A stretch of 64,000 nt of DNA from Candidatus Saccharimonadota bacterium (GTDB lineage Bacteria > Patescibacteriota > Saccharimonadia > Saccharimonadales > AWTP1-31), in the NCBI GenBank assembly GCA_003962975.1, contig RXKC01000005.1, positions 52,751 to 116,750 of the forward strand, given 5' to 3'. Both the position numbers and the translations under genes were made by a program. A model generated the notes under the pieces. The model had not been told where the DNA came from, did not search any database, and was given only the letters and a program-made list of their open reading frames with translations. Positions 10,189 through 55,090 of this stretch are shown piece after piece. The stretch's first letter is position 1. The number at the start of each line of letters is the position of its first letter.

Positions 10189-10200
10189 GGATTTGCATTC

Positions 10201-10389: not shown

Positions 10390-10928
10390 TGGTGAACCCG
10401 CTATTACTGGTTGCATCTGAAGCTGCTGAAAAAGAAGGCATTGCAGTCCTTGGTATCGATCCTAAGGCAATCTTGCTGCAGGCTGGTACGTTTTTACTGC
10501 TCTTCTTTATTGTTAAGAAGTTTGCCCTGCGCGGTATTGTCGACACACTTGAAAAGCGTCGCAAGACTATCGATAAGGGTGTAAAGCTTGGCATTGAAAT
10601 GCAGGCAGCTAAAGAAAAGTTTGATGAAGAGCTCGAAGCTATGCAGCAGAAGGCCCGTAAGCAAGCTGATGAAATTCTGACTGGTGCGGCAGCCGAGGCA
10701 GCGCAAATCATTCGTGATGGCGAAGCCAGCGCAGCCAAAAAAGTTGACGCCATGCTCAAAGACGCAGGCGTGCGCATCGAACGCGAGATGGAAACAGCTC
10801 GTCGCGAACTGCGTGGTGAAATGCTGACACTTATTTCAGAAGCAACCGAAGTAATCATCGACGAAAAAGTTGATGCTAAAAAAGATGCATCGCTTATCGA
10901 GCGTGCACTAGCAAAGGTACGGGCGTAA
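10389..10928 (+). CDS. atpF: F0F1 ATP synthase subunit b
   Basis: 179 aa with an N-terminal TM segment (GTFLLLFFIVKKF) and a long charged helix, in the position between c and delta. Confidence 0.85.
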   Translation: MVNPLLLVASEAAEKEGIAVLGIDPKAILLQAGTFLLLFFIVKKFALRGIVDTLEKRRKTIDKGVKLGIEMQAAKEKFDEELEAMQQKARKQADEILTGAAAEAAQIIRDGEASAAKKVDAMLKDAGVRIEREMETARRELRGEMLTLISEATEVIIDEKVDAKKDASLIERALAKVRA

Positions 10929-10929
10929 C

Positions 10930-11322
10930 ATGGCACGAGCAACAAACTCAACCATCGCCCGTGCCCTGCTAGCCGACATCGACGCCGGCAAAGATATGCA
11001 AACAATTACCGAATCATTGGCGGCATACCTAGTGCAAGAACGCCGATTGGGTGACCTGAATGCAATTTTGCGTGATGTCGAGCGGCAGTTGTTCACGCAA
11101 CGTGGTGTGCTGTATGTGCATGCTGATGTGGCTCGGCCAATGAGTGAGCAGCAAAAACAAGACGTAACAAGTATCTTCCAGGCGCAATCAGGTGCAAAAG
11201 AAGTAGTTATCGAAGAAACAATTAATAAAGGTGTAATTGGCGGCGTGCGTTTGACCACAGCTGATCAGCAGCTAGATTTGACCGTGCGCCGACAATTACA
11301 GCGACTAAAGAGCGTAGGTTAG
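10930..11322 (+). CDS. atpH: F0F1 ATP synthase subunit delta (short, 130 aa)
   Basis: Operon position plus the C-terminal OSCP-like block VIGGVRLTTADQQLDLTVRRQL. It is shorter at the N-terminus than typical ~180-aa delta subunits. Confidence 0.75.
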   Translation: MARATNSTIARALLADIDAGKDMQTITESLAAYLVQERRLGDLNAILRDVERQLFTQRGVLYVHADVARPMSEQQKQDVTSIFQAQSGAKEVVIEETINKGVIGGVRLTTADQQLDLTVRRQLQRLKSVG

Positions 11323-11331
11323 GAGTTTACT

Positions 11332-12867
11332 GTGGCAGTAGAGATGAATATTAAAGAACTAAGCCAGGACATTCGCGAAGCGATTGCCAGCCTGAAGAGT
11401 AGTCCAGAAATTGAAAGTGTTGGTATTGTTACTCGCGTTGGTGACGGTATTGCCTGGATCTATGGTCTGCAAAACTGTGGCTATAACGAAATGATCGAAA
11501 TTGAAGGTGACGACGTCAGCGTACCAGCGTTTGCGCTCAACCTACAAGAGGGTGAGATCGGTGCCGTATTGATGGGCGAAGACGTTAATGTAAAGGCTGG
11601 CATGCGTGCCAAGTTGACCGGACGCGTTATGGAGATCCCTGTTGGCCCAGAACTAGTTGGCCGCGTCGTTGACCCACTTGGTCGCCCACTTGATGACAAG
11701 GGTCCGATTAAGTCTAAGCAAATGGGTCTACTCGAGCAAAATGCTCCGGGCGTACTTGACCGTAAAAGTGTGCACGAACCAATGATGACAGGCCTGATGT
11801 CAATTGACGCCATGGTGCCGATTGGTCGTGGCCAGCGTGAGCTGATTATTGGTGACCGCCAGACAGGTAAAACTGCCGTAGCTGTCGACACCATGATCAA
11901 CCAGTACCGCCAGAAGTCAGGTGTTATTAATATCTACGTTGCTGTTGGTCAGAAGCTCAGCAAAGTCTCTCGCATCATCGAGCGACTAAAACGCGAAGGC
12001 GTTATGGATCAAACCATCGTGGTAGCTACCAGTGCATCTGACCCTGCTTCATTGCAGTACCTGGCTCCATATGCCGGTGCAACCATCGGTGAGTACTTCC
12101 GTGATAACGGCCAACATGCTCTTATTACCTATGATGACCTTTCCAAGCACGCTGTTGCCTACCGACAAATGTCACTATTGCTGCGTCGTCCACCGGGCCG
12201 CGAAGCCTACCCTGGTGATGTGTTCTACCTGCACTCACGCTTGCTCGAACGAGCTGCAAAACTGAGTGACGAAAAAGGTGGTGGTAGCTTGACTGCTCTG
12301 CCAATCATCGAGACTCAGGCTGGAGACATTTCTGCCTATATTCCAACCAACGTGATTTCTATTACCGACGGACAGATCTTTATGGAAACGAACCTGTTTA
12401 ACCAGGGTATCCGACCAGCTGTTTCAGTAGGTTTGTCGGTTTCTCGTGTGGGTGGCTCTGCGCAGACCAAAGCCGTTAAGAGTGTTGCTGGTTCGCTACG
12501 ACTTGACCTAGCCCAGTTCCGCGAACTCGCGGCTTTTGCTCAGTTTGGTAGTGACCTGGATGCAGAGACCAAAGCAAAGATCGAACGCGGTCAGCGTTTG
12601 ACCGAGCTTCTTAAGCAGCCACAGTACAGCCCATTGGGTATCTGGGAGCAAACTGCTTCCCTATTGGCAGCCACCGAAGGTGCTTTCGATGACATTCCTG
12701 TCGCTAACATCAAGCCAGCTCAGGCTTCTCTTCTGCAAGAATTGAAGAGTCAGTACAAGAAAGAAATGGAAGAGCTCAACAAGGGCGACAAGCCAAGCGA
12801 CAAGACCAAAGAAATTATCCTCAAAGTTGCACGAAGCGTAGCTAAGGGACAATCAAAGGAAGACTAA
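11332..12867 (+). CDS. atpA: F0F1 ATP synthase subunit alpha
   Basis: 511 aa with Walker A GDRQTGKT and typical alpha blocks ([29 protein letters not shown]). GTG start. Confidence 0.95.
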
Positions 12868-41275: not shown

Positions 41276-43846
41276 ATGACAGATGCATCGGGTGGTCAGC
41301 TAGTCAGTACGTTCAAGGCCATATTACCTTGGTCGGTGGGTGTGTTTGTGTCGCTCTTTTCGCTTGCTATCTTGATTGGTACTGTTCTTCGGTTATATAA
41401 CTATCGTCGTAAATACAAACAAAAGTCAGTTCTGCTGGAACTTACACCACCGGCATTTACCAACAAAACTCCTATTGCTACCACTCAATTATTCTCGGTA
41501 CTACACGGCTTACTCAAGTCGAGGAGCTTCAAAGACGCGGTTCTTCGCTATGTGCCAACCCTTTCAATGGAGATTGTCTCTACTAAGTCCAAGGGTATTC
41601 GGTTTTATATTCGTACCGACGAGGCTAACGAAGAACTTATCCGACAAGCAGTTACCGCGTATAGTTCGGATGTAAAGGTTCGGGTGGTTGCCGACAGACC
41701 CGAAATTCATGGAATGCAGGTATTGCAGGTGTATCGGCAGACTGAGCACTTTGCCATGCCACTTGATACCTCAAGCACCCTTAACGAGCATGATCCGGTC
41801 GCCTACTTAACAAATTCCATGACCCAGCTGCAAGACAACGAGCGTATTGAATTGCAATTAGTGGTTACGCCAACAGTTGTGTCCGAAGCGGCTAGTATTG
41901 ATAGAAAGATACGGCAGGGTTATTGGTCTGGATCGAGCCTTGAGAAACGGTTTGGACATAAGTCTATCCTACGAATCGTGTTTGCACTCATTCGCTTGCC
42001 GTTTGTGCTCGTTAAGACTATGATCTACACGTTTTTGACCAACAACCTACCAGAATCACAAAAACATACTAAGCGAGCCGAATACGCTAAGGCCATTCCG
42101 CCAGCCGAACAAGAACTGCTTGACTCTATGCACGCCAAACTAAGCCAAGATCTATTCTATGTAGATATACGAGCACGAATACTAGCTCCAGATAAAGAAA
42201 GGGTACGTGCTCGGTCTCGAGCATTAGGCAATGCCCTAATGACCTACACCACTCCGATGTGGCAACGACTGAGATCTACCAGGAGTTATATTCCTTGGCT
42301 GGGTCTTCGGATTCGTTTACGACAGTTTCAATACCGTTTACCGTCGCTGATCCATAGGCACGCTAATATACTAAGCTCTACCGAACTAAGCGCCTTGTTT
42401 CACTTCCCGCATAGTTCATCTGCACGAACAGAAAACGTATCTAAATCACTCAGTAAAACTCTACCAGCCCCGATATCGCTAAAAGATAGTGCTAATACCT
42501 TTGATGTAATTCTAGGTAAAAATATCCACCACGGCAGCGAAACACTAATTGGGTTAACTGAAGCCGAACGGCAACGACACATCTATGTTATCGGTGGAAC
42601 CGGTAACGGTAAAACAACCATGTTGCAGTACGGTATTGTGCAGGACATTCAAAGCGGCAAAGGCTTGGCGGTGATTGATCCGCATGGTGATATGGCACTG
42701 ACCATACTTAAACATATCCCTAGGGATCGCATGCAGGACGTTATCTACTTCAACCCTGATGATATCGACCACCCACTGGCCATGAACCTGCTAGAAATTC
42801 CAGAAGGCCTGAAAGGCAGTGCCCTAGAACGAGAAAAAGACCGCGTCACCGAACATGTTATTTCGGTGCTTCGAAAAATCTTCTCAGACGACGATACCGG
42901 TGGCCACCGTATTGAGTATGTGCTACGTAATGCCATTCAAACAGCGCTTACCACCGAAGACCCAACCATCTTTACTATCTTTGAACTTCTTACCAACGAT
43001 AATTACCGTAAAAAGATAACTAATGCATTACCAGCCGGAACGCTTAAGAATTTTTGGCAGAACGAGCTCGGTAAAGCTGGAGCTATGCAACGGGTTAAGA
43101 TGAGCCACGGTGTTACCAGTAAGATCGGGCGTTTTGAATTCTCGCCCGCAACCAAGCGAGTCATGGGCCGAGCAAAATCTACAATAGACTTTGATGACAT
43201 CTTGGCTTCTGGCAAGATCCTGGTCTGTAATTTCTCTAAAGGCAATCTCGGCGAAGATACTTCTGAGCTTTTTGGTACGGCAGTACTGGCCAAGCTGCAA
43301 ATTGCAGCACTGCGACGTGCCCGCATGGATCAAGCCAAGCGCGAGCCGTATTATTTGTACGTAGACGAATTCCAGAACTTCGCAACCATGCCATTTGTGC
43401 AGATGCTTTCCGAGGCTAGAAAGTATAAGCTATTTTTAACCATGGCCGAACAGTCTACTGCCCAGCAAGAAGAACAGCGCCTGGTGCAGATTATTCTAGC
43501 TAATGTTGGTACGGTGATTAGCTTTAGAACTGGTAGCCCTGCTGATGAGCAACTAGTTTTGCCGTTGTTCAAGCCATATATTGAGGAGGGCGAGATAGCC
43601 AATCTGCCAAGCTTTAACTTCTATGCACGCTTGAGCGCTATTCATTCACAAGAACCGTTATCTGGCGAAACATTGCTCCTTGAAAACGCAGGTAGTGATT
43701 CGATTGCCAAGAAAGTTATTGCGTCCTCACAGAAGTTGTATGCGTATGAATATGGTAAGACTAAGCCAAAGTTGGTCAATAAGCTAGCCAAAACAGAATC
43801 CAAGACTAGCACAGAGTCCGATGAGGATGAGCCGCTAGAAGTTTAA
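41276..43846 (+). CDS. TraD/VirD4/TraG-like (type IV coupling-protein-like) P-loop ATPase with N-terminal TM region
   Basis: 856 aa with an N-terminal TM segment (WSVGVFVSLFSLAILIGTVL), Walker A VIGGTGNGKTT, Walker B YLYVDEFQNF, and ARKYKLFLTMAEQS. Strong RBS. Confidence 0.6.
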   Translation: MTDASGGQLVSTFKAILPWSVGVFVSLFSLAILIGTVLRLYNYRRKYKQKSVLLELTPPAFTNKTPIATTQLFSVLHGLLKSRSFKDAVLRYVPTLSMEIVSTKSKGIRFYIRTDEANEELIRQAVTAYSSDVKVRVVADRPEIHGMQVLQVYRQTEHFAMPLDTSSTLNEHDPVAYLTNSMTQLQDNERIELQLVVTPTVVSEAASIDRKIRQGYWSGSSLEKRFGHKSILRIVFALIRLPFVLVKTMIYTFLTNNLPESQKHTKRAEYAKAIPPAEQELLDSMHAKLSQDLFYVDIRARILAPDKERVRARSRALGNALMTYTTPMWQRLRSTRSYIPWLGLRIRLRQFQYRLPSLIHRHANILSSTELSALFHFPHSSSARTENVSKSLSKTLPAPISLKDSANTFDVILGKNIHHGSETLIGLTEAERQRHIYVIGGTGNGKTTMLQYGIVQDIQSGKGLAVIDPHGDMALTILKHIPRDRMQDVIYFNPDDIDHPLAMNLLEIPEGLKGSALEREKDRVTEHVISVLRKIFSDDDTGGHRIEYVLRNAIQTALTTEDPTIFTIFELLTNDNYRKKITNALPAGTLKNFWQNELGKAGAMQRVKMSHGVTSKIGRFEFSPATKRVMGRAKSTIDFDDILASGKILVCNFSKGNLGEDTSELFGTAVLAKLQIAALRRARMDQAKREPYYLYVDEFQNFATMPFVQMLSEARKYKLFLTMAEQSTAQQEEQRLVQIILANVGTVISFRTGSPADEQLVLPLFKPYIEEGEIANLPSFNFYARLSAIHSQEPLSGETLLLENAGSDSIAKKVIASSQKLYAYEYGKTKPKLVNKLAKTESKTSTESDEDEPLEV

Positions 43847-44091
43847 TCGACGAATACTTGCCGAGGTTTAGCACTATCGGCTGGTCAGATCGGTCTTTCC
43901 CCGGTGACAAGAAGGTGTGTGTTGTGTCGATTATGGTATAGTATCTTCAGTACTTTTAAATTTCGGCAGGACACCAAGTTCTTTTGTTTACTATAAGCTC
44001 AACACATCTCATTAGAAGAATCCGTTAAAAGATTCATCCGAAGAGATCTAGTCGAGTCTCTTTAGCAAATAATAATTTGGGAGGTAAAGAT

Positions 44092-44265
44092 ATGGTTAGC
44101 CCGTATTTTAAAGTCTTCAAGGATAGTGCTGGTGAGTGGCGCTGGACGCTTCACGCGGCCAACAACGAACCAGTTGCTGTTAGTGAAGGCTACACCCGAC
44201 GTGAGAGTGCAGTAGAAATGGCCCAAAAGCTGTGGAAGATTGCATATAACGCGCCGATCGTGTAA
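44092..44265 (+). CDS. YegP/DUF1508-family small protein
   Basis: ATG at 44092 after GGGAGG. The sequence YFKVFKDSAGEWRWTLHAANNEPVAVSEGYTRRESAVEMAQ matches a single DUF1508 repeat. Confidence 0.75.
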   Translation: MVSPYFKVFKDSAGEWRWTLHAANNEPVAVSEGYTRRESAVEMAQKLWKIAYNAPIV

Positions 44266-44293
44266 AGCAACGTCCTGCCGGAGTTCAAGAGTA

Positions 44294-44740
44294 TTACCCT
44301 TTAAATTCAGACATAATGTTCACCTGGTTGCCAAACTCATCAGCTAACATTTTTTTGAGTGGACCATCTTTGGTTATTACTGTTACTAGCGAAGTATCAA
44401 TTGTCCCGAACTCTAGAGTGGTCTGAGGAGGTCTCCTGCCATAATCTGTGACTAGACAGGACACCAATGCAAGTATTGATACATCAGCAAAACCCCTCAT
44501 TTTCGCAAATGATACGCCCGTGAACTTATTGAGCATCGTGGCATATTCTTTTAGATAGTGTGCCTCATCGTAGCCTTTCATAGAGGATGCAAGTTTCACC
44601 ATCTCGAATTTCTTGTTATGTCTTGCCTCGGCAACCAAGTATTCGTAATAAAGATCATCTGACACAGTAATTTCAATCGACGGTAGCTTGCCCCCGTTAT
44701 TGATACTGTTAATAATGGTATTTGTATCAACAACTGTCAT
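44294..44740 (-). CDS. PIN-domain nuclease-like protein
   Basis: 148 aa with an N-terminal VVDTNTII, a central GFADVSILALV and a C-terminal VTVITKDGPL. These match the acidic-residue positions of PIN domains. The gene overlaps its upstream neighbour by 4 nt. Confidence 0.65.
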   Translation of the reverse strand: MTVVDTNTIINSINNGGKLPSIEITVSDDLYYEYLVAEARHNKKFEMVKLASSMKGYDEAHYLKEYATMLNKFTGVSFAKMRGFADVSILALVSCLVTDYGRRPPQTTLEFGTIDTSLVTVITKDGPLKKMLADEFGNQVNIMSEFKG

Positions 44741-45933
44741 AGACCTACGTTCGCCTTAAACTTCTCAAACTTTAGTTTGTCTACGTAGCCAAACATGAGG
44801 TATTGAGCCCTGACACCCGTCAGCTTATCTGTTCGAACGCCATCAATTATGTCTGCGCAGGTAGCTTCACCACATAGTTTCTTTACCGATGTGTCGATAT
44901 TTGGCGTACGTTTGTGGCTTGCGCCTGACGACTCTGGTTTTCTCTGAATACTTTCAAGAAGTTCTTGAAGTTCTTCTTTTGTTTGTATGAGGCCTCGCTC
45001 CTGCAGTGTCAGGACGATAGCCGAAGGTGTCAACATATATTTTTCTGCAAGTTCGTCACGCACACTGTCTGTTATAGGTTCTTCAAGCTGTTCCGTGACC
45101 ACAACCGGAAGAAGCACTTCGCTTGCAATACCAAACGCCTGCTTAAGCAAGTCACTTTCACGAATCCTGGTTTCGAATTCGCCATCAATATATACGTTGT
45201 ACTGTTCAAGACCAATCATGGTAAGTAGGGCAAACAGCGTAAGGATTTGTCTCCCTGGCGTTTCATTGTCGTTAATTTCACTGGGCAAGAATATGTAGGG
45301 TACTTTATTGTCTTTTACTACAAAGCCACTGGATTTTCGATATGTGCTCCTTATATTATTTTCAATAGGTAGCAGTTTGTTCGAGTTCATGACACCACGA
45401 GAAACACGAACGTTTTTCTTTTCAAGCTGCTTGATTATGTAGCCAAGAGTCTTTTCTTTCTGGCCACTACTTAGCGATTCTGGGTCTATGTCGAAGTAGG
45501 ACAAAATATGCCCGGCGCGTTCGTGGTCAGGAATCTTTGTTAAGCTACCGCAAAAGTCATTATTTTTATCAACTACAGTTCGCGCAAAGTCTTGGAGAGC
45601 AATAAGCCTGTCGGCTATTCTTAACGCTACTCCTTTACCCTCATTATCTCGGCTCGCAATAAACTTATCTTCAAACTTGCTTTTTCGTAACTTATCAAGT
45701 TCAGCGATTTCCTTATCTAGCTTTTCTGGTTTAAGTAGGAATAGCTGCCACGGCAGTGATAAGGTTTCGCATTCTTTCTTCAGATCAGAGAAAGATATTT
45801 CTTTTGTCTGTCGCGCCTCAACAAATACCTGTCGTTCCGTGAGTGATTCGTCAGGATAAATGCTGAGAATCTTATCCAGCGAAGATTCTTTAATATGTAG
45901 AGCAGTCTTACCATGAGATTTCAGTGCTATCAT
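44737..45933 (-). CDS. hypothetical 398-aa protein, operon partner of the PIN gene
   Basis: Long uninterrupted ORF whose stop overlaps the PIN start. I see no clean catalytic motif. Confidence 0.55.
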   Translation of the reverse strand: MIALKSHGKTALHIKESSLDKILSIYPDESLTERQVFVEARQTKEISFSDLKKECETLSLPWQLFLLKPEKLDKEIAELDKLRKSKFEDKFIASRDNEGKGVALRIADRLIALQDFARTVVDKNNDFCGSLTKIPDHERAGHILSYFDIDPESLSSGQKEKTLGYIIKQLEKKNVRVSRGVMNSNKLLPIENNIRSTYRKSSGFVVKDNKVPYIFLPSEINDNETPGRQILTLFALLTMIGLEQYNVYIDGEFETRIRESDLLKQAFGIASEVLLPVVVTEQLEEPITDSVRDELAEKYMLTPSAIVLTLQERGLIQTKEELQELLESIQRKPESSGASHKRTPNIDTSVKKLCGEATCADIIDGVRTDKLTGVRAQYLMFGYVDKLKFEKFKANVGL

Positions 45934-45999
45934 AAAAAACCAAAGCGATGCTTATTTTATGAAAGTGCCACCACCGCACATGCCACTAACACTAAATAA

Positions 46000-46041
46000 A
46001 TACTACGCTTCTCGAGGTAAAGTTGCAATCGAACGCGATTG
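46000..46041 (-). promoter_or_regulatory. candidate promoter (TTGCAA-17 nt-TAGTAT) with overlapping palindrome CAATCG-N4-CGATTG
   Basis: Minus strand: -35 at 46028-46023 and -10 at 46005-46000. The palindrome at 46026-46041 overlaps the -35 element. It lies upstream of the 398-aa/PIN pair. Confidence 0.4.
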
Positions 46042-46080
46042 TTGTTTAAAATGCTTAAGTTTATTTAAGTTAAGGGGTCT

Positions 46081-46995
46081 TTATTTGCTTAAGATATCAA
46101 CGAATCTATTCGTCTCTTCCAATGTCCAGTCCATAATCCTTACATACTTGCCAGTGTGCTGACTGTAGTTACCTGACGTACATCCCTCGCAGATAGATAG
46201 CTGTTCTTGCTTTTCATCTTCAACTGGAAATATAGAAACTTGAGTAGTATTTTGTGCAGATTTACCTTCACAGCTCATAGGAATTACATATTTTAGCCCG
46301 TCCATCTGGAATATGTTCCAGCTGATAATTTCAGCAAACGAGCGTAGCAAGTCCAATGACGGCTTACGCCCAAACTTGTCCTGGTAGTAATCGATGAGAG
46401 TATAGAGTAGGTTTTCTCTAGCAATAAGGAGATTGTCGCCCTGCCATTCGTATCCATAGCTCGCCATGTATGCATGCTTTGCCCATTTGATCCACTCGCG
46501 TGGGGTATCGCAAAACTTCGATACAACTCGTAGCTTGCGGTCGAGAAAGCCGACACGGTTTGATAACTTTATGAGTTTGCCGGTATGTGCTGTAGGGTTG
46601 TAGCGACTCACAATAAATGGTGCTTCGCCACAGCTAATCTCAAGTATTGTTTTTGATACGTAGGCTTGCCAGCTTTCATTAGGCCAATCAACAATATTAT
46701 TCATCTTATCGACAATTTTTACCGGTGTGAATACTTCTGCCTTATCGCGGGTACGTTGCTTTTGCTCGGCAAGCGGTTTTGCAGCACGTGGCTGTATGAG
46801 CTCACCGTGCTGTCCAGTAACTAACTCTTTTTTTATGTGCTTTTTGGGTGCAAAATCTTTGCCGATAGCCTCGTATGAGTCTGTCGCCCAGATAATGTTC
46901 TTACCAGAGGTTCTGTCGATGAGGAGGATATCCAATAGATTACCACGATGGCGAAGTGAGTTTTCTTGGATATCAATTTCGTGAGCAGGAGCCAT
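46081..46995 (-). CDS. methyltransferase-like protein lacking catalytic motif IV ('half-MTase'), third gene of the operon
   Basis: 304 aa. AEVFTPVKIVDKM parallels SEVFTPSHIVDKV in the upstream fusion protein. LEISCGEAPFIV resembles a motif-I position and YGYEWQGDNLLIARENLL a motif-III position. There is no (N/D)PP(Y/F) anywhere. The C-terminus has Cys pairs (SCEG...CEGC). Confidence 0.55.
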   Translation of the reverse strand: MAPAHEIDIQENSLRHRGNLLDILLIDRTSGKNIIWATDSYEAIGKDFAPKKHIKKELVTGQHGELIQPRAAKPLAEQKQRTRDKAEVFTPVKIVDKMNNIVDWPNESWQAYVSKTILEISCGEAPFIVSRYNPTAHTGKLIKLSNRVGFLDRKLRVVSKFCDTPREWIKWAKHAYMASYGYEWQGDNLLIARENLLYTLIDYYQDKFGRKPSLDLLRSFAEIISWNIFQMDGLKYVIPMSCEGKSAQNTTQVSIFPVEDEKQEQLSICEGCTSGNYSQHTGKYVRIMDWTLEETNRFVDILSK

Positions 46996-46998
46996 GGG

Positions 46999-49900
46999 CT
47001 ACTCCATTGCCCTAACGTGAGTCTCAATAAAGTCAATTTCTTTTTGGCTTAAGCCATATTTTGCATAAAGTTGTTTGTCTATGTTCGGAATACTTTTTGA
47101 CCAGTCGATATCAGAATCTGGCGTGAAATCTTGCAGTGGAACGTTCTTCCATGTTCCCTTGGGGGCGTGTTGAGTGATCTTTAATGTGCCAAGCATTGCA
47201 CGGGCAAATTTTGATTTAATGTATTTCATGCAGTTTTGTGCTTGAATCTCAGTATCAAACCCTCCGAAGGATATAAAGGTCTGGGTACCCCCTATAAGGG
47301 GTTCCCCTATAAGGGGTGTACTGAGAATTTCACCGATTGCACCACTCCCGTTAGACTTTGGAACAAATACCTTCCATTTATCTAGATTTGGGTGAGCAGA
47401 GATGTACTCTCGCTTGATCCACTTGAAGATGCGTTTATTATCCTCGCGACCGTAAATGCACACGTAATCACCAGTGGAAGGTTGATTATTTGTGAATACC
47501 TCCGGAAAAGTACGGAACACTTTTGTCCCGATAGATCTTTCCTCGTTTACGCTTACTCGACCACGAAGCTGCGGATTATCCTCATATAACTTTTCAGTAA
47601 ACCTGTAGCTACTATTGCCAAAAATTATTTTGCTTAGTTTTTCGGGATTAGTTAGTGAAACCTTATGAAGTACGGAGTTGAGCTCGTCAAACGGGGTAAA
47701 TGTGCCGATTGGTCCTAAAATCTTATCTGCATCACGGTGTGTAATGACCACACCACCCTTGATATCTGTATTAGGAAAGATATCAGCTGACTTTTGCTTG
47801 AAGTAAACTACTTTCAAGTGCTTATCATTGAGCATCTTTTCATTCCACTGCTTGGAAGATTGACCAGCATTAAACAGGAATCTACCAGGCGTAATCAAAC
47901 ATACTTTATCAGATAATAAGTAAGAGTTGTCCATAAACTGTGGGTAAATAGGATTAGTACGACTATTAGCCGTATCCTCCTGATAAGGCGGGTTACCAAC
48001 CACGGCACTGAACTTCACTTGATTACCCTCGTCTCCATTACTTTCTATTCTAACATCCGTGGCCTTGAGGTCTTCTTTTGTTATTTCACTAAGCGTTTTA
48101 GTCGCCAGTAGTGTTCGGAAGGTATCTATGTGCTTTAGCTCTAGGATGTCGTAAGACGTAAAGTGCTGGGCAATATTATCAATATTAAGCCCTAACGCCT
48201 TGTACATTTTGCGGGTAAATTCGTAAGCAGCTGACGAAGTCGGAATCGAGTAGAAGTTATTCTTTATGCTTTCTAGTGATACGCCATCTTGCTGCACTCG
48301 CCTGACAAATCCGTTAGCAAAACTACCGGACTTACTAGCAATGTCTAAAACTTTAGCACTTGAGGCGCTGCGCCAGAAGTCGGTGCCAAAGGCGTCAAAT
48401 ACTTTATCGACAATATGAGAAGGAGTGAATACCTCTGAGTCTGATAGTTTGCCGAACTTGTTGATGGCAATATTAATATGTTCGACTGGCGTAATGCTAT
48501 CGTCGTTAGCGCGATAGTCTGAGTTCTGGATCTTGTAGTCAAGTGAGCTAAGTATTGACCAGTTCATTGTTTCGCGTAGCGCAGTGAGGTGTTCTTTTCT
48601 GAGGCCCAGACTACGAGCTATGCGCTGGTTGTCTTTGTTAGCATCAAGGTTAGAGATAACGTCAGCTAGTGACTTTTCTTCGGTGGTTGAAAGGAATGCA
48701 AAGAGCAGGATGAGCACGTAGTACATGCGGAATTGTTTTTCGAATGTTTTGATAGCATTAGCCTCATCATTGTCAGTTGGCGAGCTGTCAGTGCTACCAT
48801 GTGAAGTATCGTCTTCATCGTTTTCGCCTGTGTCATCACCAGTATCGGTGTCAATATCATCGCCTTCGCCATCATCTTCAATCGGTGAGATATTAAGGCC
48901 ATTTTTGCCATTGATTTCCGCCAAGGTACTAATCAAGCTGTTAATACTTTCGTTATCTCGAAGACTAATGTCGACGCCAATTTCATTGACGTCTTCGCTG
49001 ATAGAGCGCTCATTTGCGTATTTTCGAACTGCGTCGATAATGACTGAGGCTTTTACTTCAACGAGTTTGTTATTTTCGGCATTAAGTGCGAGTACTGGTG
49101 ACACTTTAAGATCTCGTGTAACGAATTGTTCAATATTTTCGTTACCGATTTTTTCAATGTTTACACCGTAGCTGAGTGCTTTGGCTTCTTGCAGGAGGAA
49201 TAGTCTTGTTGGATCAAGATCAACCAGCAGGGTTTGCGGCTTCATATCATATTTGATTACTTCATCTGTATTATCAACGTACTTCTTTATCCATGGGGAT
49301 TGAAGTCGAAAGATAGCTTGATCGTATTCTTGCGGACTAATGGTCGCTTTAAGATAGATCATGGTATCCCACTCTGGCACCGTTGTGCCAGTGAGCATCT
49401 TATTGACTGTCAGAGTTAGCGTTTTTCTGCCATTCGCTTCAGCGGCAGTTACTGCAGCTTTTATTTGCTCGGGTTTTTTGAGTGATGTACTGGCGTTATG
49501 GCCACTGATATTAAGGATTTTATATTCAGAAAGGTTTTTAAATAGTTCCGGACGGTCATGTAGTAGCTTTTCAAACGCATCACATGATGCTCGCTTTGGC
49601 AGAACGATAACCACATGACGTGCGAGCTTACCGGCTTTAATCGATGGATGGTCGAGCAAGGCTAGTAGTTTAGTGTCCTGTTTTGTGCCATCGAGCACCC
49701 GAAGTAGATCGATTACTTCCTTTTCATGCAAGAAGGTTTGGTAGTCACCAGTTTTATTGGTATCGACAGGCGCAAAGATTTCAGACGGCTTGCTGCCAGG
49801 GAGTTCTTCGAGTTTCTTACGAGAGCTTTCATTTGGATTGAAGGCAAAGCGAATCATTTGTGGGAAGCCGTAGTATGGGTTGTCCCACTCGTTTTTATCG

Positions 49901-51057
49901 AGGTTGTGGGCACTCCAAGCTAGTTTGGATTCATAGATGTCACTGAACTGAACAAAGGCGATTATGTCTTCTTTAGCAAATTCGCTACCCATGAGGATAC
50001 GGTAAGGTGTACCCGAAAGGTGTAATTTTATCTTGGCGTTGATTGCTTTCAGGCCCTGGATTTTACCCAGCTCGTCGATGCTGTCGGTATTTTTGAGAGA
50101 CTCTTCATCTTCTTCGTTTAGTTCAACGCCGGCTAGAATCTTGCCAAGTACTTGAGCACGAGCACCGAAGTGAGTTTCATCTATAATCAGTAGGTCTGGG
50201 CTGGCACTCTGTAGTATCTCGTGACGTTTCTTTACCTCTGTGGCCGATCCAGCAAGATCTTGTAGTGTCAGAAACAGCACAATATTTGTGCAGATTTCCG
50301 TTTTACCATCACCAGTGTAGAACTCTTTGCCGTAGACTTCATGAAAGTTCATACCGGGTGTTAGGTCAGTGCTTTCCATGAATCGATAACCGGTGAAGTC
50401 TTTGTGACTTTCAACTGTATGCTTCCACTCAGACTTAACATCGGCCTTGGCTGATACGACAAGAGTTAGTTTTGAATCTATTTTTTTAGCACACCACATT
50501 GAAGTGATTGACTTGCCAAAACGCATAACAGCGTACATTAAAAGGTTTGTCTGGCCATTATTAACGGCAGTTGTGAAGTTATTAATCACTTCTCGTTGGT
50601 TGTTGCGCGGCTCGAAATCGCTTTCACGAGCATAGTGAAGCTCTATTCTATCCTTGAGACTATCATAGTATGCGTATTTGCCAGGCGTACCGTAGCTGTT
50701 AATCACATCATTTACGGCAGCCGCTACGCTGTTGCCGTCGATACCTTCAAAGAATTCATTTGAGTAGATATTGTTGTCTCTATCGATGCCAATACGGACT
50801 GTTCCATTAGCTTCAAGGTATTTGTGTACCGAGTGATCCCTAAAGAATACATTTTCATTTACCAGTGCCTTGTGCCGCGAGACTTCAGTTAGGTCTTTGT
50901 AGTGCCTACGCCATTCATCTAAACGTTCTTCAACTGGACGATACGAGTCACCAACCTTAAGAAGATTTGGTAAGGTGTTTGTTTGGAAAGAATATATATG
51001 CGGCTCAACTCGACCAGTTATTATTTCTCTAATTACAGAATCATCAATCGTGGACAT
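46999..51057 (-). CDS. fusion protein: T5orf172/GIY-YIG-superfamily-like N-domain + SF2 (ResIII/SNF2-like) helicase + acidic linker + Eco57I-type N6-adenine DNA methyltransferase + C-terminal (TRD-like) region
   Basis: 1352 aa with these elements in order: an N-terminal IYSFQT...LLKVGDSYRPVEERLDEW...FRDHSVHKYL...SNEFFEG region; helicase motif I MRFGKS; DExH LLIIDETHFG (codons at 50181-50170); LSGTPYR; an acidic tract DDGEGDDIDTDTGDDTGENDEDD (~48787-48912); MTase motif X SEVFTP; and VVGNPPYQ (NPPY codons at 47994-47983). Confidence 0.8.
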   Translation of the reverse strand: MSTIDDSVIREIITGRVEPHIYSFQTNTLPNLLKVGDSYRPVEERLDEWRRHYKDLTEVSRHKALVNENVFFRDHSVHKYLEANGTVRIGIDRDNNIYSNEFFEGIDGNSVAAAVNDVINSYGTPGKYAYYDSLKDRIELHYARESDFEPRNNQREVINNFTTAVNNGQTNLLMYAVMRFGKSITSMWCAKKIDSKLTLVVSAKADVKSEWKHTVESHKDFTGYRFMESTDLTPGMNFHEVYGKEFYTGDGKTEICTNIVLFLTLQDLAGSATEVKKRHEILQSASPDLLIIDETHFGARAQVLGKILAGVELNEEDEESLKNTDSIDELGKIQGLKAINAKIKLHLSGTPYRILMGSEFAKEDIIAFVQFSDIYESKLAWSAHNLDKNEWDNPYYGFPQMIRFAFNPNESSRKKLEELPGSKPSEIFAPVDTNKTGDYQTFLHEKEVIDLLRVLDGTKQDTKLLALLDHPSIKAGKLARHVVIVLPKRASCDAFEKLLHDRPELFKNLSEYKILNISGHNASTSLKKPEQIKAAVTAAEANGRKTLTLTVNKMLTGTTVPEWDTMIYLKATISPQEYDQAIFRLQSPWIKKYVDNTDEVIKYDMKPQTLLVDLDPTRLFLLQEAKALSYGVNIEKIGNENIEQFVTRDLKVSPVLALNAENNKLVEVKASVIIDAVRKYANERSISEDVNEIGVDISLRDNESINSLISTLAEINGKNGLNISPIEDDGEGDDIDTDTGDDTGENDEDDTSHGSTDSSPTDNDEANAIKTFEKQFRMYYVLILLFAFLSTTEEKSLADVISNLDANKDNQRIARSLGLRKEHLTALRETMNWSILSSLDYKIQNSDYRANDDSITPVEHINIAINKFGKLSDSEVFTPSHIVDKVFDAFGTDFWRSASSAKVLDIASKSGSFANGFVRRVQQDGVSLESIKNNFYSIPTSSAAYEFTRKMYKALGLNIDNIAQHFTSYDILELKHIDTFRTLLATKTLSEITKEDLKATDVRIESNGDEGNQVKFSAVVGNPPYQEDTANSRTNPIYPQFMDNSYLLSDKVCLITPGRFLFNAGQSSKQWNEKMLNDKHLKVVYFKQKSADIFPNTDIKGGVVITHRDADKILGPIGTFTPFDELNSVLHKVSLTNPEKLSKIIFGNSSYRFTEKLYEDNPQLRGRVSVNEERSIGTKVFRTFPEVFTNNQPSTGDYVCIYGREDNKRIFKWIKREYISAHPNLDKWKVFVPKSNGSGAIGEILSTPLIGEPLIGGTQTFISFGGFDTEIQAQNCMKYIKSKFARAMLGTLKITQHAPKGTWKNVPLQDFTPDSDIDWSKSIPNIDKQLYAKYGLSQKEIDFIETHVRAME
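47289..47318. repeat. 15-bp perfect-but-one tandem duplication inside the fusion gene
   Basis: CCCCTATAAGGGGTT followed by CCCCTATAAGGGGTG. It is in frame and encodes PLIGE-PLIGG. Confidence 0.9.
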
Positions 51058-51894
51058 CTATATTTCTTCTCTTCTCATGACTTCATCCATCGTCTTGCCG
51101 TCTTTATTCTTCCAGCCGATCCAGGCATTGATGCTTCTTCCAGAAACAAGGCCACCTGCGTGGTTTGGGCTACGGGTAGAAATGTTGTTCGTTACTTCAA
51201 ATACATCACCAAGGTCTTTACTATTGGCAGTAAGTAATTCGTCTCGCTCTACGAGTGACTTCGGAAATGCTTTTGCCCAGCTTGGCGCATAGGATTTGTC
51301 TATGATTGAGCCGGCAAGAATAACGAACTTATCGCCCCGAAACTGTGCTTTCGCATTACTTTTCTTAGCCGATAAATGCCAAATTGATTCTTCTTCAGTA
51401 TCTTTTTTGGATGCGAAGATACTAAAGCCGAGTGATTCAGCAATCATGGCAGTGTCTTCTAGGATTTTCTCTAGTGTATGGACTTTGAACTCATGCACAT
51501 TATTCCGTGCTGGCACTGTTTTGTTCAATACTGTCATGGCAGCCGTAGCCTGGGCTTTCTCGACTGCAAGTGATTCTAAATATTTCACGTCACTTTTTTC
51601 AAGGCTGTTGGTGTTTGAAACTATAGCTATAGCGAGATCCCAGAAGTCTTTCGACTGATCGTGATTCTTAACACGGTGGTAAAAATTTTCACTTTCACCA
51701 ATGTAGAGTTGATTGTCAGATGAATTGATAAGCAGATACAGTGATGGTTGGTTTATCTCGCTCCGCTTTTTTACGTCACTTAGCTTTATCCTCGGTACAA
51801 CAAAAGCCTTTATCGGGCTTTCAGATAATTCGATAACCTTGATTCCCTCTAGTGAGCCGTCCGGTAAATATGTCTGTATTAATCTTGGAATCAT
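51058..51894 (-). CDS. GIY-YIG nuclease domain + DUF4357-like C-terminal domain protein, first gene of the operon
   Basis: 278 aa with GIY-YIG-like SLYLLINSSDNQLYIGESENFYHRVKNH and C-terminal RSPNHAGGLVSGRSINAWIGWKNKDGKTMDEV, typical of DUF4357. Its TAG stop is directly followed by the fusion gene's ATG. Confidence 0.75.
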   Translation of the reverse strand: MIPRLIQTYLPDGSLEGIKVIELSESPIKAFVVPRIKLSDVKKRSEINQPSLYLLINSSDNQLYIGESENFYHRVKNHDQSKDFWDLAIAIVSNTNSLEKSDVKYLESLAVEKAQATAAMTVLNKTVPARNNVHEFKVHTLEKILEDTAMIAESLGFSIFASKKDTEEESIWHLSAKKSNAKAQFRGDKFVILAGSIIDKSYAPSWAKAFPKSLVERDELLTANSKDLGDVFEVTNNISTRSPNHAGGLVSGRSINAWIGWKNKDGKTMDEVMRREEI

Positions 51895-52064
51895 GGTGTA
51901 ATTATAGCTTCTACGGAGTCTAAGATAAAGGAGATTTACTTTCCGTAGGTCTCTAAGTATACAGACCGAGCAAACCAGTCAAGGTAGTACAAGTCTCCAC
52001 CTTGACTACTTTGCCGTGCGGCCTTGTTGAGTAACCTCCGTTACAAAAAGTAAAGGAGGAAGAA

Positions 52065-52334
52065 ATGCCAGAAGCAAACAAATATAACGGGTGGAGTAAC
52101 CGTGAAACATGGGTAGCTAACCTGTGGCTAACCAACGATCAGGCGAGTTACTATCTGCTGCTTGAAGCGCTTAAGCACTCAGACAGTGACTATACCTGTG
52201 CTGAATGGCTACAGGAACAGTTGCGTGATCAGCTGGATCAAGAAGCTGGTACTGCAAGTACGTGGTCAGACTTACTTAGTACCGCATTCTACTGTGTTGA
52301 CTGGGTCGAGGTAATCGAGTGTAACCGCGAGTAA
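52065..52334 (+). CDS. small acidic hypothetical protein (MGE-associated)
   Basis: 89 aa with a very strong RBS (AAGGAGG). The motif NGWSNRETWVANLWLTNDQASYY is reminiscent, from memory only, of small phage/plasmid proteins. Confidence 0.6.
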   Translation: MPEANKYNGWSNRETWVANLWLTNDQASYYLLLEALKHSDSDYTCAEWLQEQLRDQLDQEAGTASTWSDLLSTAFYCVDWVEVIECNRE

Positions 52335-52368
52335 TTCATAATCCTGAGCAAGACTAAAAACTGCTCGA

Positions 52369-53109
52369 TTAGGAAAGGATCAAATCATCCAGTTTTGATG
52401 CGGTCATCTGTATATCTACATAGCTCGAATCTAGCTCTCGCCTGATCAAGTTGTCTACGCGTTTTATGAGTTGTGCAGATTCACATATAAACAATACGTT
52501 CGGGTGCGGCTGATCGAGTTTGTACTTTTGCCAAATCTCAAGTTCGGCAAAAGTGATATAGCGTCGTATGGCTTTTCTGAGCGTCCAGAAGCTCATAGTG
52601 TCTTCTAGGTAATCAACAAAGTATGATTTGTCACTCTGATTGTCGATCAGGAAGGCATCTGGTCTCGTCTTAGGAACATACGGCTTATTCATAAGCTCAG
52701 TCTTGCTAAAGAGCTTAAACCGGTCAGGATAGGTCTGTTTAATGGTGATGTAGGTCTTAAAGACGTTGAGTCGGTGCTGGATGCGACTGTCGTTGGCACG
52801 CTTGTCTTGATAGATGCTTCGGAGGGCTGATTCTTGAGTATATGGTTGATCACGAAGGAATCGTACCCCATCTGTTAGTAAATAATAGGTAGCTGGTTTG
52901 CCTTTAATCTTGTAGCTACTGTCGTAGTTCATGCCAATGTAGCCTTGATCTACTAGTATCTTGAGTCTGTTTGATATGACTCGTTGATGTTTGGCTTGTT
53001 GATTTTCAGCTAGTAGTGCAGTGGTAGTAAAACGGAATTTATAGAGCGTGTTTAGGATAGCAATTTGGTGAGTGTTTAGTGGTCGTCGGTATTTAGGTTC
53101 AGTCTTCAT
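52369..53109 (-). CDS. replication-relaxation (Replic_Relax) family protein
   Basis: 246 aa with an N-terminal winged-helix-like LNTHQIAILNTLYKFRFTTTALLA...ISNRLKILVDQGYI. Length and layout are typical of this family on actinobacterial and firmicute mobile elements. Confidence 0.65.
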   Translation of the reverse strand: MKTEPKYRRPLNTHQIAILNTLYKFRFTTTALLAENQQAKHQRVISNRLKILVDQGYIGMNYDSSYKIKGKPATYYLLTDGVRFLRDQPYTQESALRSIYQDKRANDSRIQHRLNVFKTYITIKQTYPDRFKLFSKTELMNKPYVPKTRPDAFLIDNQSDKSYFVDYLEDTMSFWTLRKAIRRYITFAELEIWQKYKLDQPHPNVLFICESAQLIKRVDNLIRRELDSSYVDIQMTASKLDDLILS

Positions 53110-53242
53110 TATGTCTACCCTATACGTAGTATAGGTAATTATATAACAATAGTGTGTTTAGCTAACAGATACAGAAAGATTATATAGATATCTTAGCGAG
53201 AAGATATCCACAGGAATAGATAAGTTCGGGTGTAGATTAGTC

Positions 53243-53271
53243 TTGAACTAACCGAGCACGGTTAGTATAAT
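53243..53271 (+). promoter_or_regulatory. promoter (TTGAAC-17 nt-TATAAT) with operator-like palindrome CTAACCG-N4-CGGTTAG in the spacer
   Basis: TTGAAC at 53243-53248 and TATAAT at 53266-53271. The inverted repeat at 53248-53265 lies in the spacer. A related half-site pair, TTAACC...GGTTAG, lies just downstream. Confidence 0.55.
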
Positions 53272-53290
53272 TAACCGTGTAAGGTTAGTT

Positions 53291-53458
53291 ATGAAACAGT
53301 TTGAGGGTACAAATCAGCTAATCACCGACAATGCAATTGAACAGTTGCAGATGATTCTACGTACTGGATCCTTGAGGGATATCAGCTTGGATGATACGCA
53401 GTCTGTAGCTCGTGATCTAATAGCATTATACGAAGTACTGGCCGAAGACTATGAGTAG
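53291..53458 (+). CDS. 55-aa acidic ORF overlapping the recombinase start (candidate directionality/regulatory factor)
   Basis: From ATG at 53291 to TAG at 53456-53458: MKQFEGTNQLITDNAIEQLQMILRTGSLRDISLDDTQSVARDLIALYEVLAEDYE. It overlaps the recombinase ATG (53451) by 8 nt. It falls below the ORF-track length cutoff. Confidence 0.4.
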   Translation: MKQFEGTNQLITDNAIEQLQMILRTGSLRDISLDDTQSVARDLIALYEVLAEDYE

Positions 53459-54944
53459 TAACGAACAGAACGTCGTTATACTCGCCCGCGTATCCAGTAA
53501 GGCACAAGAAGACGAAGGTTACTCCCTCGATTCACAGCTAAAGCTGCTTATGGGCTACTGTCAGCAACGAGACTTAAACGTAGTACGAATATTTAAGATC
53601 GCCGAGACGGCTAGTAAAGAACAAAGTCGCAAGGTCTTCCATGAGCTACTAACCTATTTGAAAACAGGCGTGGTGTTTCACTTGGCGGTCGAAAAGACCG
53701 ACCGACTAACCCGAAACTTCCGAGATGCGGTTGCTATCGACGAGTGGTTAGAGCGCGATGGTCGTCGTAGACTTCATGCCGTAAAAGAGAGTTTACTGCT
53801 CCATAAAGAAGCCCGATCCGACGTGAAGTTTATGTGGAATATCCACTTATCTGTTGCTAAGAAATACTCCGACAATTTACGAGAAGAAGCCATGAAGGGC
53901 TGGGCGGAGAAGCTCGCCCAAGGATGGCTACCATCTACGCCGCCACCAGGGTATAGAACAGTCATAGTAAACGGCAAAAAGATCCATGAACCAGATCCAG
54001 CCACCAAAGCCATTATGCAGGGCATATTCGAAAAGTATCTTGAGCCTAACCAGTCTATTGAGAGTATTCGAGCAGAACTAGAGCTACTTGGACTCAGAAC
54101 CCGCAAGGGTCGCCCGTTCAGCAAGAGTTACACCCAAAAGATACTTACTAATACGTTCTACATAGGCGTAAACCACTTTAACGGAATGGATTACCCTGGA
54201 GCTCAAGAGCCGATAATCAGCAAGGAGTTGTTCGATAAGGTGCAGCGTAAAATGCGCCGGAAGCTAACCTGCCGATACCGGACACATAATCCAATCTTCA
54301 AGAACATAATCCGCTGCACAACGTGCGGCAAGATGGTTACGTGGCAATTGCAAAAAGGACGCTACTACGGTGCATGCCAAAGGAGGACTGAAGCATGCAA
54401 ACAAAATGTCTTACTCCGAGAAGACCGGCTCGAGGAGCAAGTGAGTAGCATGCTGCAGAAGCTTGTTTCACCCCGAAGTGACGTCATCGAGTGGCTGGCC
54501 GAGGCCATGAAGCGCAAGCACAAGTCTGCTGTCGATGAAAACCAGCAACTGATTAAGTCCATCCAGACTCAGCTAGATAGGGTTCTGTACATGGATACCA
54601 ACCTATATGACGACAAGCTGGCTGGAGAGATTAGTCAGGCATTCTACACGCAAAAGCATACTGAACTTACGGAGCAACGTAAGTCACTCGAAGAACGACT
54701 GCAGAAGATTGACCATACGCTCGGGGCGTCACTTGAGCAACGACTCATACTACTGGAACTCACTCAGAAAGCGGCAGAACTATACGGCAAGAAGTCGCCC
54801 GAAAAGAAACGGCTCATTATATCCAAACTATTTGAAGAATTCAGTTACGAAGGAGGTATCTTATCTGTTAACTACACAATATTCGCCAGAGCAATTGCTC
54901 AAAATGTTTTAGAAACTCAACAAATAATAGGAGGAAGAATATGA
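53451..54944 (+). CDS. large serine recombinase
   Basis: 497 aa with an N-terminal resolvase catalytic domain (VVILARVSSKAQ...GYSLDSQ), a recombinase domain, a Cys-rich zinc ribbon (CTTCGK...YYGAC) and a coiled-coil C-terminus. Confidence 0.9.
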   Translation: MSSNEQNVVILARVSSKAQEDEGYSLDSQLKLLMGYCQQRDLNVVRIFKIAETASKEQSRKVFHELLTYLKTGVVFHLAVEKTDRLTRNFRDAVAIDEWLERDGRRRLHAVKESLLLHKEARSDVKFMWNIHLSVAKKYSDNLREEAMKGWAEKLAQGWLPSTPPPGYRTVIVNGKKIHEPDPATKAIMQGIFEKYLEPNQSIESIRAELELLGLRTRKGRPFSKSYTQKILTNTFYIGVNHFNGMDYPGAQEPIISKELFDKVQRKMRRKLTCRYRTHNPIFKNIIRCTTCGKMVTWQLQKGRYYGACQRRTEACKQNVLLREDRLEEQVSSMLQKLVSPRSDVIEWLAEAMKRKHKSAVDENQQLIKSIQTQLDRVLYMDTNLYDDKLAGEISQAFYTQKHTELTEQRKSLEERLQKIDHTLGASLEQRLILLELTQKAAELYGKKSPEKKRLIISKLFEEFSYEGGILSVNYTIFARAIAQNVLETQQIIGGRI

Positions 54945-55007
54945 GTAACCAAACCATTAAAAAACACCCCATTTACAGAGGTGCATTAAAGCTTGTTGCC
55001 AAGCTGC

Positions 55008-55022
55008 GTTCTATATGGCTAG
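55008..55022. repeat. direct repeat, right copy (putative attR core): GTTCTATATGGCTAG
   Basis: Spans the 3' end of tRNA-Gln (TGGCTAG at 55016-55022) plus 8 nt beyond it. Matches 32551..32566. Confidence 0.5.
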
Positions 55023-55090
55023 GGCGGAGGGATTCGAACCCCCGAATGCCAGGACCAAAACCTGGTGCCTTACCACTTGGCCACGCCCTA
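55016..55090 (-). tRNA. tRNA-Gln (anticodon UUG)
   Basis: The reverse complement folds as a cloverleaf: acceptor TAGGGCG/CGCCCTA, anticodon stem CCAGG/CCTGG with loop TTTTGGT (TTG), T-arm GGGGG-TTCGAAT-CCCTC, and an encoded CCA. Confidence 0.9.

Follow-up and report, generated by a model that had tools for sequence, protein, structure and literature searches.

Can the design of the Type ISP restriction-modification (R-M) enzymes be built around a different nuclease? The question is raised by a single unbroken open reading frame (ORF) of 1352 amino acids (aa) on the minus strand of a 64-kb stretch of contig RXKC01000005.1, from a Candidatus Saccharimonadota bacterium; we refer to this whole stretch as the window. 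An initial annotation, made from the sequence alone, placed the ORF at 46999-51057, exactly where we find it, and described its product as a Type ISP-like single polypeptide in which a T5orf172/GIY-YIG-superfamily head replaces the Mrr-type nuclease of LlaGI and LlaBIII. Our reading, which we hold to be reasonably probable by analogy with the Type ISP enzymes, is that this large protein and a neighboring gene form a two-gene, ATP-dependent, translocating R-M unit that is Type ISP-like and assembled from different parts. The features on which this reading draws are as follows, with superfamily 2 abbreviated SF2, methyltransferase MTase, and target-recognition module (or domain) TRD.

46999..51057, minus strand: large R-M polypeptide, 1352 aa (ORF; PADLOC PDLC03626; Pfam ResIII and Eco57I; identical NCBI protein)
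50620..51057, minus strand: head, aa 1-146, T5orf172/GIY-YIG-like putative nuclease (PF10544 in orthologs, hhalign, AlphaFold2, Foldseek)
49198..50616, minus strand: SF2 helicase-like ATPase, aa ~148-620 (Pfam ResIII, weak Helicase_C, invariant motifs)
48883..49197, minus strand: connector from motor to linker, aa ~621-725 (conservation profile 0.56-0.81; no family match)
48754..48882, minus strand: acidic low-complexity linker, aa 726-768 (70% D/E/G/T, no K/R)
47758..48732, minus strand: gamma-class N6-adenine MTase, aa ~776-1100 (Pfam Eco57I, weak N6_Mtase, alignment with M.TaqI)
47383..47757, minus strand: variable TRD, aa ~1101-1225 (mosaic identity)
46999..47382, minus strand: conserved C-terminal region, aa 1226-1352 plus stop codon (conservation 0.65-0.75; PADLOC MTase_II PDLC03375 over aa 1013-1351)
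46081..46995, minus strand: partner gene, 304 aa, partial gamma-class MTase (PADLOC MTase_II PDLC03390; locus linkage)

Domain architecture of the large protein

The proposed order, from nuclease head through SF2 translocase and gamma-class N6-adenine MTase to a specificity-like C-terminus, was confirmed by Pfam domains and by the mosaicism of the TRD. All of the motifs quoted in the initial annotation were located, both in the head (IYSF at aa 20-24, LKVGD at 33-37, ERLDEW at 44-49, FRDHSVH at 72-78, and NEFFEG at 100-105) and in the motor and MTase parts (GKS at 181-183, DETH at 293-296, VLDIASKSGSF at 903-913, and GNPPYQ at 1021-1026). Motif conservation was judged in alignments of 32-43 diverse homologs with 40-91% identity, and nearly all of the quoted motifs are invariant or near-invariant across them. 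Judged by its motifs, the copy in the window is full length, with all predicted catalytic motifs intact. The PADLOC model REase_MTase_IIG (PDLC03626) matches the protein from end to end (aa 8-1351 against positions 11-1359 of 1359, E = 2.9e-301, 1000.6 bits), and the NCBIfam scan returned no model for the large protein or its partner.

A T5orf172/GIY-YIG-like head

Three agreeing tests indicate that the head is T5orf172/GIY-YIG-like rather than Mrr-like. Among 32 family members, 4 match the Pfam family PF10544 (T5orf172), the lowest E being 5.4e-6, and a precomputed match to it is present on 10 of the top 120 homologs. A profile built from 43 head sequences lines up, in the same register, with a true T5orf172/MUG113 (PF10544) protein (hhalign E = 2e-4), pairing the IY, the LK(V/I)G, and the Arg-containing helix; the head of an Enterococcus plasmid relative gives an hhalign E of 4e-7. 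Finally, the AlphaFold2 model of the head (pLDDT 84, core above 90), with the order strand-strand-helix-strand-helix, has 18 Foldseek matches in BFVD at E ≤ 1e-3 and a probability of 1.00; those that carry names are for the most part T5orf172, GIY-YIG, or Bro-N proteins. Similarity to the T5orf172/GIY-YIG folds, on which the initial annotation had staked its claim, was therefore found in the N-terminus by ortholog Pfam matches, by profile, and by fold. Pfam scans of the large protein gave no match to a PD-(D/E)XK family. As modeled, the head of the window protein carries a T5orf172/GIY-YIG-like fold.

Conservation within the head bears on whether it would cut DNA. Across the 43 sequences, Y22, K34-V-G36, R40, R45, E48, R73-D74, H78, and E101-F-F are invariant. 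In the hhalign alignment, Y22 and R45 pair with the GIY Tyr (IIY) and the catalytic Arg of a T5orf172 protein. E101, in the EFF motif, may be the metal-binding catalytic Glu, an assignment made from the motif 'E-[WF]-F' rather than from a structural superposition. A domain of this kind need not cleave: the original description of T5orf172 was of a DNA-binding domain, many annotations keep that name, as seen among the BFVD matches, and one report describes a domesticated, non-cutting T5orf172 protein in the PLE system (PMC8096241). One could thus read the unit as a BREX- or DISARM-like methylation defense in which the head is a DNA-binding or sensor module and the motor blocks replication. We consider this unlikely given the invariance of Y22, R45, and E101, which line up with the catalytic Tyr, Arg, and, by motif, Glu of GIY-YIG nucleases, and given that ICP1 Odn/Gp88, a T5orf172 protein with the catalytic Arg and Glu still in place, is by experiment a nuclease that cuts DNA (PMC8263062). 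Odn/Gp88 belongs to the same domain family as the window head and retains the same two catalytic residues; it differs in being a stand-alone nuclease targeted by a fused DNA-binding domain, whereas the domain in the window protein shares its chain with a motor and an MTase-TRD unit.

The head co-evolves tightly with the core of the protein (r = 0.87). In the wider family, heads are exchangeable, as relatives on Lactococcus dairy plasmids (locus L007, 2730-7100; 1456 aa, with ~35% identity beginning at aa 71) carry a ~290-aa N-terminus with DUF4145 in place of the T5orf172 head. Separation of the head was observed as well. In four loci (L034, L035, L056, and L040), the head lies in a different ORF from the rest of the large gene. 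The split in L040, from Mycoplasmopsis, is probably an artifact of using translation table 11 instead of 4, and the other three could be explained by a frameshift or loss of function as a pseudogene, by phase variation, or by a variant that is truly split. In Candidatus Enterococcus moelleringii (L048), a 1112-aa ORF at 8929-12264, directly downstream of a family member, has a T5orf172 match of 27.4 bits, above the gathering score, together with ResIII and no MTase domain. Its domain content would fit a motor-nuclease that has no methylase, or else a second copy that is truncated.

The motor and its connections

Pfam ResIII matches aa 148-353 (E = 3.8e-9), with a weak match to Helicase_C. The SF2 motifs Walker A (MRFGKS, 178-183), DETH (293-296), SGTP (348-351), and QAIFRLQSP (580-588) form a set that spans ~470 aa and is invariant across 32 homologs. 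The invariance of Walker A, DETH, SGTP, and the Q..R residues argues for an active ATPase.

This matters for the label under which databases file the protein. Besides the end-to-end PADLOC REase_MTase_IIG match, the MTase matches Pfam Eco57I, a family named after a Type IIG enzyme, and NCBI names for the family include 'Eco57I restriction endonuclease'. These could mean that the protein is an ordinary Type IIG/IIL enzyme that cuts at a fixed short distance without ATP-driven translocation, and that its helicase-like region is vestigial or structural. We assign this explanation a low probability: invariant SF2 motifs in at least 32 homologs of 46-91% identity argue for a working motor, the ResIII match alone covers ~200 aa of the ~470-aa motif set, and the label comes from automated typing, for which we found no underlying experiment. 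The 'Type IIG' label is cataloguing, not mechanism. Type IIG/IIL enzymes such as Eco57I, MmeI, BpuSI, and DrdV do resemble the window protein in having a fused chain for restriction, modification, and specificity, a gamma-class MTase, and a TRD at the C-terminus. They differ from it in having PD-ExK heads and no ATPase motor, whereas the window protein combines a ~470-aa SF2 ATPase with a GIY-YIG-like head.

Between motor and MTase lie a connector (aa ~621-725), which is coupler-like and may function as such, and the acidic linker. The initial annotation had reported an acidic tract at about 48787-48912 made almost entirely of Asp, Glu, Gly, and Thr. The tract exists and its acidic character is real, with no Lys or Arg; its position, however, is 48754-48882, ~10 residues downstream of the one given, and 'almost entirely' slightly overstates a D/E/G/T content of 70%, compared to 26% in the whole protein. 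An acidic linker is present in all homologs and varies in sequence and length, and so behaves as a flexible linker.

Methyltransferase and target-recognition module

The Pfam Eco57I model matches aa 934-1094 (E = 6e-16), and the region from motif X to motif IV also matches N6_Mtase weakly. The motifs are X (SEVFTP, 874-879), I (VLDIASKSGSF, 903-913), and IV (GNPPYQ, 1021-1026), with X-I and IV in register with M.TaqI. The NPPY motif had been described as intact, and its alignment with motif IV of M.TaqI bears this out. Motif I had been called degenerate, which is fair as a literal description. It is kept family-wide as LD(I/L)ASK(S/Q/A)G, and it shares the pattern L-[ED]-x-A-x-x-x-G-x-F with active M.TaqI (VLEPACAHGPF; sequence verified against PDB). 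Conservation throughout the family and the register with M.TaqI show that this motif is an unusual selected variant, TaqI-like with a single glycine, rather than the result of decay.

The C-terminal specificity-like region behaves as a swappable TRD, as seen in the mosaic identity among close relatives. For example, one homolog (P0005) is 88-98% identical to the window protein over aa 1-1000 and 28% identical at aa 1151-1200. Among 2556 pairs from 75 loci, the identity of the TRD (aa 1101-1225) is uncorrelated with that of the core (r = 0.16); one such pair, L049 and L070, has identities of 0.91 in the core, 0.90 in the head, and 0.17 in the TRD. At the sequence level, close relatives swap this module in the manner expected of a TRD.

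A partial methyltransferase as a constant partner

The description of the system as a single polypeptide holds in that the activities are located in one chain. It missed a 304-aa ORF on the same strand, three bases downstream of the large gene, that encodes part of an MTase. This partner matches the PADLOC MTase_II model PDLC03390 with E = 4e-96, and was blank in Pfam, NCBIfam, and PDB sequence and profile searches. Its orthologs, with 44-76% identity, flank the large gene in Saccharibacteria, Gardnerella, and Polaribacter, on a side that varies. In a survey of 80 loci from a collection with one genome per species, 75 could be judged, and a same-strand partner was found beside or near the large gene in all 75. 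The partner abuts the large gene in 66 of these, upstream in 61 and downstream in 5, the latter being the Saccharibacteria type to which the window belongs. In the 9 further loci, it either sits on the same strand at a distance of 0.8-1.6 kb or overlaps an extended ORF call. The five loci in which no partner was seen are those where the large gene starts at a contig edge.

What kind of protein is the partner? It contains motif X (AEVFTP, in AEVFTPxxIV) and a motif-I-like loop (LEISCGEAPF), in a segment that aligns both with the X-I segment of the large protein and with M.TaqI. A motif IV of the form (N/D/S)PP(Y/F/W) is absent from all five orthologs examined. Smaller orthologs on Lactococcus and Enterococcus plasmids, labeled 'N-6 DNA methylase', are related to the partner by hhalign (probability 95%, E = 5e-8). 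They have a canonical motif I (FLEPAAGDGNF) and motif II (YGIE), and cover, above the gathering score, only positions ~20-110 of the 311-position N6_Mtase model. By its motifs, then, the partner holds only the cofactor-binding front part of a gamma-class MTase, without the catalytic motif IV. The weak fold and Pfam similarities of the partner point toward the N-terminal MTase regions of MmeI/DrdV and HsdM, a further likeness to the Type IIG/IIL enzymes.

The second gene of the Eco57I system encodes a complete MTase. If the partner were likewise a true stand-alone protective MTase, the large protein would mainly restrict. The strength of the PADLOC MTase_II match, the NCBI names 'restriction endonuclease subunit M' and 'N-6 DNA methylase', and a motif I more canonical than that of the large protein would all suit such a role. 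Set against these are the lack of motif IV in the five orthologs, the coverage by the plasmid orthologs of only the first third of N6_Mtase, an AlphaFold2 model without a full seven-strand Rossmann sheet, and the lack of a TRD-like variable region. We therefore regard a stand-alone MTase as very improbable. The divergence of the partner tracks that of the core (partial r = 0.73) and not that of the TRD (partial r = 0.19), suggesting that it is a constant accessory subunit. A role as specificity subunit, which we also considered, was ruled out by this same pattern. From its motifs and divergence, the partner would be neither a specificity factor nor a self-sufficient MTase. This half-methylase is the least expected element of the system and the main point of interest. 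If the mechanism proposed below holds, it might point to a novel link by which the sensing of cofactor, or the assembly of subunits, bears on whether the system methylates self DNA or restricts.

Two further observations concern the partner and its operon. Residues C242, C269, C272, and H280, within aa 242-280 of the partner, form an invariant Cys/His cluster similar to a zinc ribbon. In the Gardnerella ortholog, a deletion removes the CxxC part, which hence appears dispensable. In three loci, genes are inserted between the partner and the large gene (L019 3912-4985, L043 969-2027, and L044 3507-4997), and encode a YhcG/DUF1016 PDDEXK nuclease, RhuM, or a Schlafen AlbA_2 protein with HATPase_c_4. 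Accessory genes of the YhcG/DUF1016, RhuM, and Schlafen types are often embedded in Type I R-M operons. By analogy, these insertions suggest that the operon of the large-protein family may be a similar docking site.

Proposed mechanism and comparison with known systems

We infer the translocation, the cleavage geometry, the methylated strand, and the role of the partner from the parts described above, as follows. The MTase-TRD unit would recognize a short asymmetric site and methylate an adenine in it to mark self DNA. At an unmethylated site, the SF2 motor would hydrolyze ATP and translocate on double-stranded DNA, and the GIY-YIG-like head would nick or cut at some distance from it, the trigger probably being the convergence of two enzymes. 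The partner would be a constant accessory subunit, most likely an S-adenosylmethionine (SAM)-binding or scaffolding one, that licenses or stabilizes methylation or restriction. If this mechanism is correct, the Type ISP design was put together on at least two occasions around unrelated nuclease folds, and GIY-YIG joins the nucleases of motor-coupled restriction enzymes.

LlaGI is ~1570 aa long, compared to ~1350 aa for the window protein. Both LlaGI/LlaBIII and the window protein have, in one chain, an N-terminal nuclease, an SF2 ATPase, a connector, a gamma-class N6-adenine MTase, and a TRD at the C-terminus, and both are carried on mobile elements, on Lactococcus plasmids in the case of LlaGI/LlaBIII. 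In the window family, as in LlaGI compared with LlaBIII, the TRD is exchanged between near-identical relatives (PMC3553950). The properties that the proposed mechanism borrows are those of Type ISP enzymes: ATP-dependent translocation, a requirement for two head-to-head sites, distant non-specific cleavage, and methylation of one strand (PMC3553950, PMC3874165). The differences are a T5orf172/GIY-YIG-like head in place of the Mrr-type PD-(D/E)XK nuclease, a partial-MTase partner gene that is always linked on the genomic evidence, and the long acidic linker of the window protein.

Several results weigh against the proposed mechanism. The window head on its own (aa 1-146) was blank in a Pfam scan even at E ≤ 10, so that the T5orf172 assignment had to rest on orthologs, profile, and fold. 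Foldseek searches of PDB were non-significant for the head model, with the GIY-YIG nuclease Slx1 as the sole recurring family, weakly, and for the partner, whose top matches were DrdV, HsdM, BrxX, and generic Rossmann dehydrogenases; the partner model itself is of moderate confidence (pLDDT 70). Judging from the sequence, motif II of the large protein's MTase apparently lacks its customary acidic residue, and this atypical motif could impair SAM binding. Searches of all PDB chains with phmmer and with a 32-sequence family profile matched no chain at E ≤ 1, and so detected no homology to LlaGI/LlaBIII, the structures of which are in PDB according to the literature (PMC4872093), or to the MmeI and DrdV structures. 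Type ISP-like behavior is consequently argued from architecture only. Our literature search for the fused family found allusions since 2009, no characterization, and no biochemistry for any member. The claim that the protein mirrors LlaGI/LlaBIII thus holds for the domain order and fails at the level of sequence relationship in these PDB searches: the resemblance is architectural and not one of family membership. By comparison of sequence features, the large protein is not a member of the LlaGI/LlaBIII family, as it lacks the Mrr nuclease, the partner-free state, and the sequence homology.

A split analog also weighs against the mechanism. The dnmA(yeeA)-yeeB-yeeC cluster likewise brings together an N6-adenine MTase with a TRD, an SF2 helicase, and a T5orf172 nuclease-like domain in a conserved operon, and was proposed by Morgan et al. 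in 2009 to be a Type I-like R-M system with modification of one strand (PMC2731913). When the cluster was studied in B. subtilis, no restriction or phage protection was observed (PMC9973331). The window unit might similarly be a methylation-only system or a defunct relic, that is, an orphan epigenetic MTase with a non-restricting nuclease and motor, as has been proposed for dnmA-yeeB-yeeC; the members of the family in which the large gene is split into two ORFs (L034, L035, and L056) would fit such a fate. We doubt this explanation, because the window copy is full length with intact catalytic motifs, the head and core co-evolve, strong purifying selection is combined with the active TRD exchange typical of diversifying selection for specificity, and the gene is on a mobile element adjoining another defense candidate. 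Compared by their descriptions rather than by sequence, the two systems also differ in that the cluster consists of three separate proteins, its MTase being MmeI-like, where the window family has a fused T5orf172-helicase-MTase chain, in that the window MTase matches Pfam Eco57I and not the MmeI models, and in the half-MTase partner, which is not described for those clusters. MANTIS/Gao_RL was considered as a known equivalent and set aside, being a four-gene, BREX-related system with different components.

Beyond the two-gene translocating R-M unit that we favor, a bolder and more doubtful possibility is that the family constitutes a class of two-subunit ATP-dependent R-M systems. The half-MTase, catalytically incompetent and reduced to the SAM-binding front of the fold, would then be an indispensable subunit that licenses, or senses cofactor for, a translocating GIY-YIG-armed chain of restriction, modification, and specificity parts with an atypical motif II. 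Under this tentative proposal, such half-MTase control logic would have no described precedent among Type I, ISP, IIG/L, or III systems, and the present database filing of the family, 'Type IIG plus Type II M', would be mistaken.

Distribution and earlier descriptions

The initial annotation implied that the protein is rare, which is incorrect. It is 100% identical to the NCBI entry 'restriction endonuclease [Candidatus Saccharibacteria bacterium]', at least 4600 related clustered proteins exist, and relatives occur in at least 526 species-level genomes from many phyla. The family is found in gut, oral, and vaginal taxa and on dairy and enterococcal plasmids, with 31-36% identity for the Lactococcus and Enterococcus plasmid relatives. 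Given the identical deposited protein, the end-to-end PADLOC REase_MTase_IIG match, and the occurrence in at least 526 species, the window protein largely is the routine member of a described subtype that the annotation had named as the alternative. The copy in the window is a routine member of a catalogued, understudied family, and for the window itself, this known deposited protein is a routine finding. Because of its presence in at least 526 bacterial species, the family probably often stands in the way of gene transfer and phage therapy, while current tools file it under 'Type IIG'.

Proteins of this kind have been alluded to before. Morgan et al. (2009) noted MmeI homologs flanked by a helicase and a GIY-YIG protein, as well as 'large single polypeptides' that combine an endonuclease, a helicase, an MTase, and a TRD (PMC2731913), and Sisakova et al. 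(2012) mentioned helicase-bearing relatives that use other nuclease families, 'e.g. GIY-YIG' (PMC3553950). We found no paper in our literature search that mentions the half-MTase partner. The large-protein family is an uncharacterized variant of known motor-driven R-M enzymes.

Genomic context

The R-M unit lies in a stretch of low GC content (0.42, compared to ~0.46-0.48), an island at ~41276-55090. One side is bounded by a type IV secretion system coupling protein gene (41276-43846), and the other by a Replic_Relax (relaxase-like) gene (52369-53109) and a serine recombinase gene (53451-54944) that abuts a tRNA-Gln (55016-55090), beyond which are housekeeping-type genes. The same framing, from recombinase to coupling protein, is seen in the relative RAAC3_TM7. 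The unit is probably cargo on an integrative mobilizable element.

Two sets of neighboring genes were considered as components of the system and rejected. A gene at 51058-51894 on the minus strand, which ends exactly at the start of the large gene, encodes a 278-aa GIY-YIG and DUF4357 protein that matches the PADLOC phage-defense candidate PDC-S14 (E = 1.5e-71). Such a gene is adjacent in only 1 of 88 comparison loci (L041 6983-7840), and its product is unrelated to the head of the large protein (hhalign E = 0.24); it appears to be an optional hitchhiker. Downstream of the partner are two overlapping ORFs on the same minus strand (44294-44740, 148 aa, and 44737-45933, 398 aa), which have no homolog in any of the 88 comparison loci and were blank in Pfam, PADLOC, and NCBIfam. 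In the RAAC3_TM7 relative (L005/L006), a stand-alone 203-aa T5orf172/MUG113 protein (5249-5860) precedes the large gene, and an AAA_15/AAA_21 and OLD-like TOPRIM protein (10980-12854) follows the partner, an arrangement that looks like a defense island.

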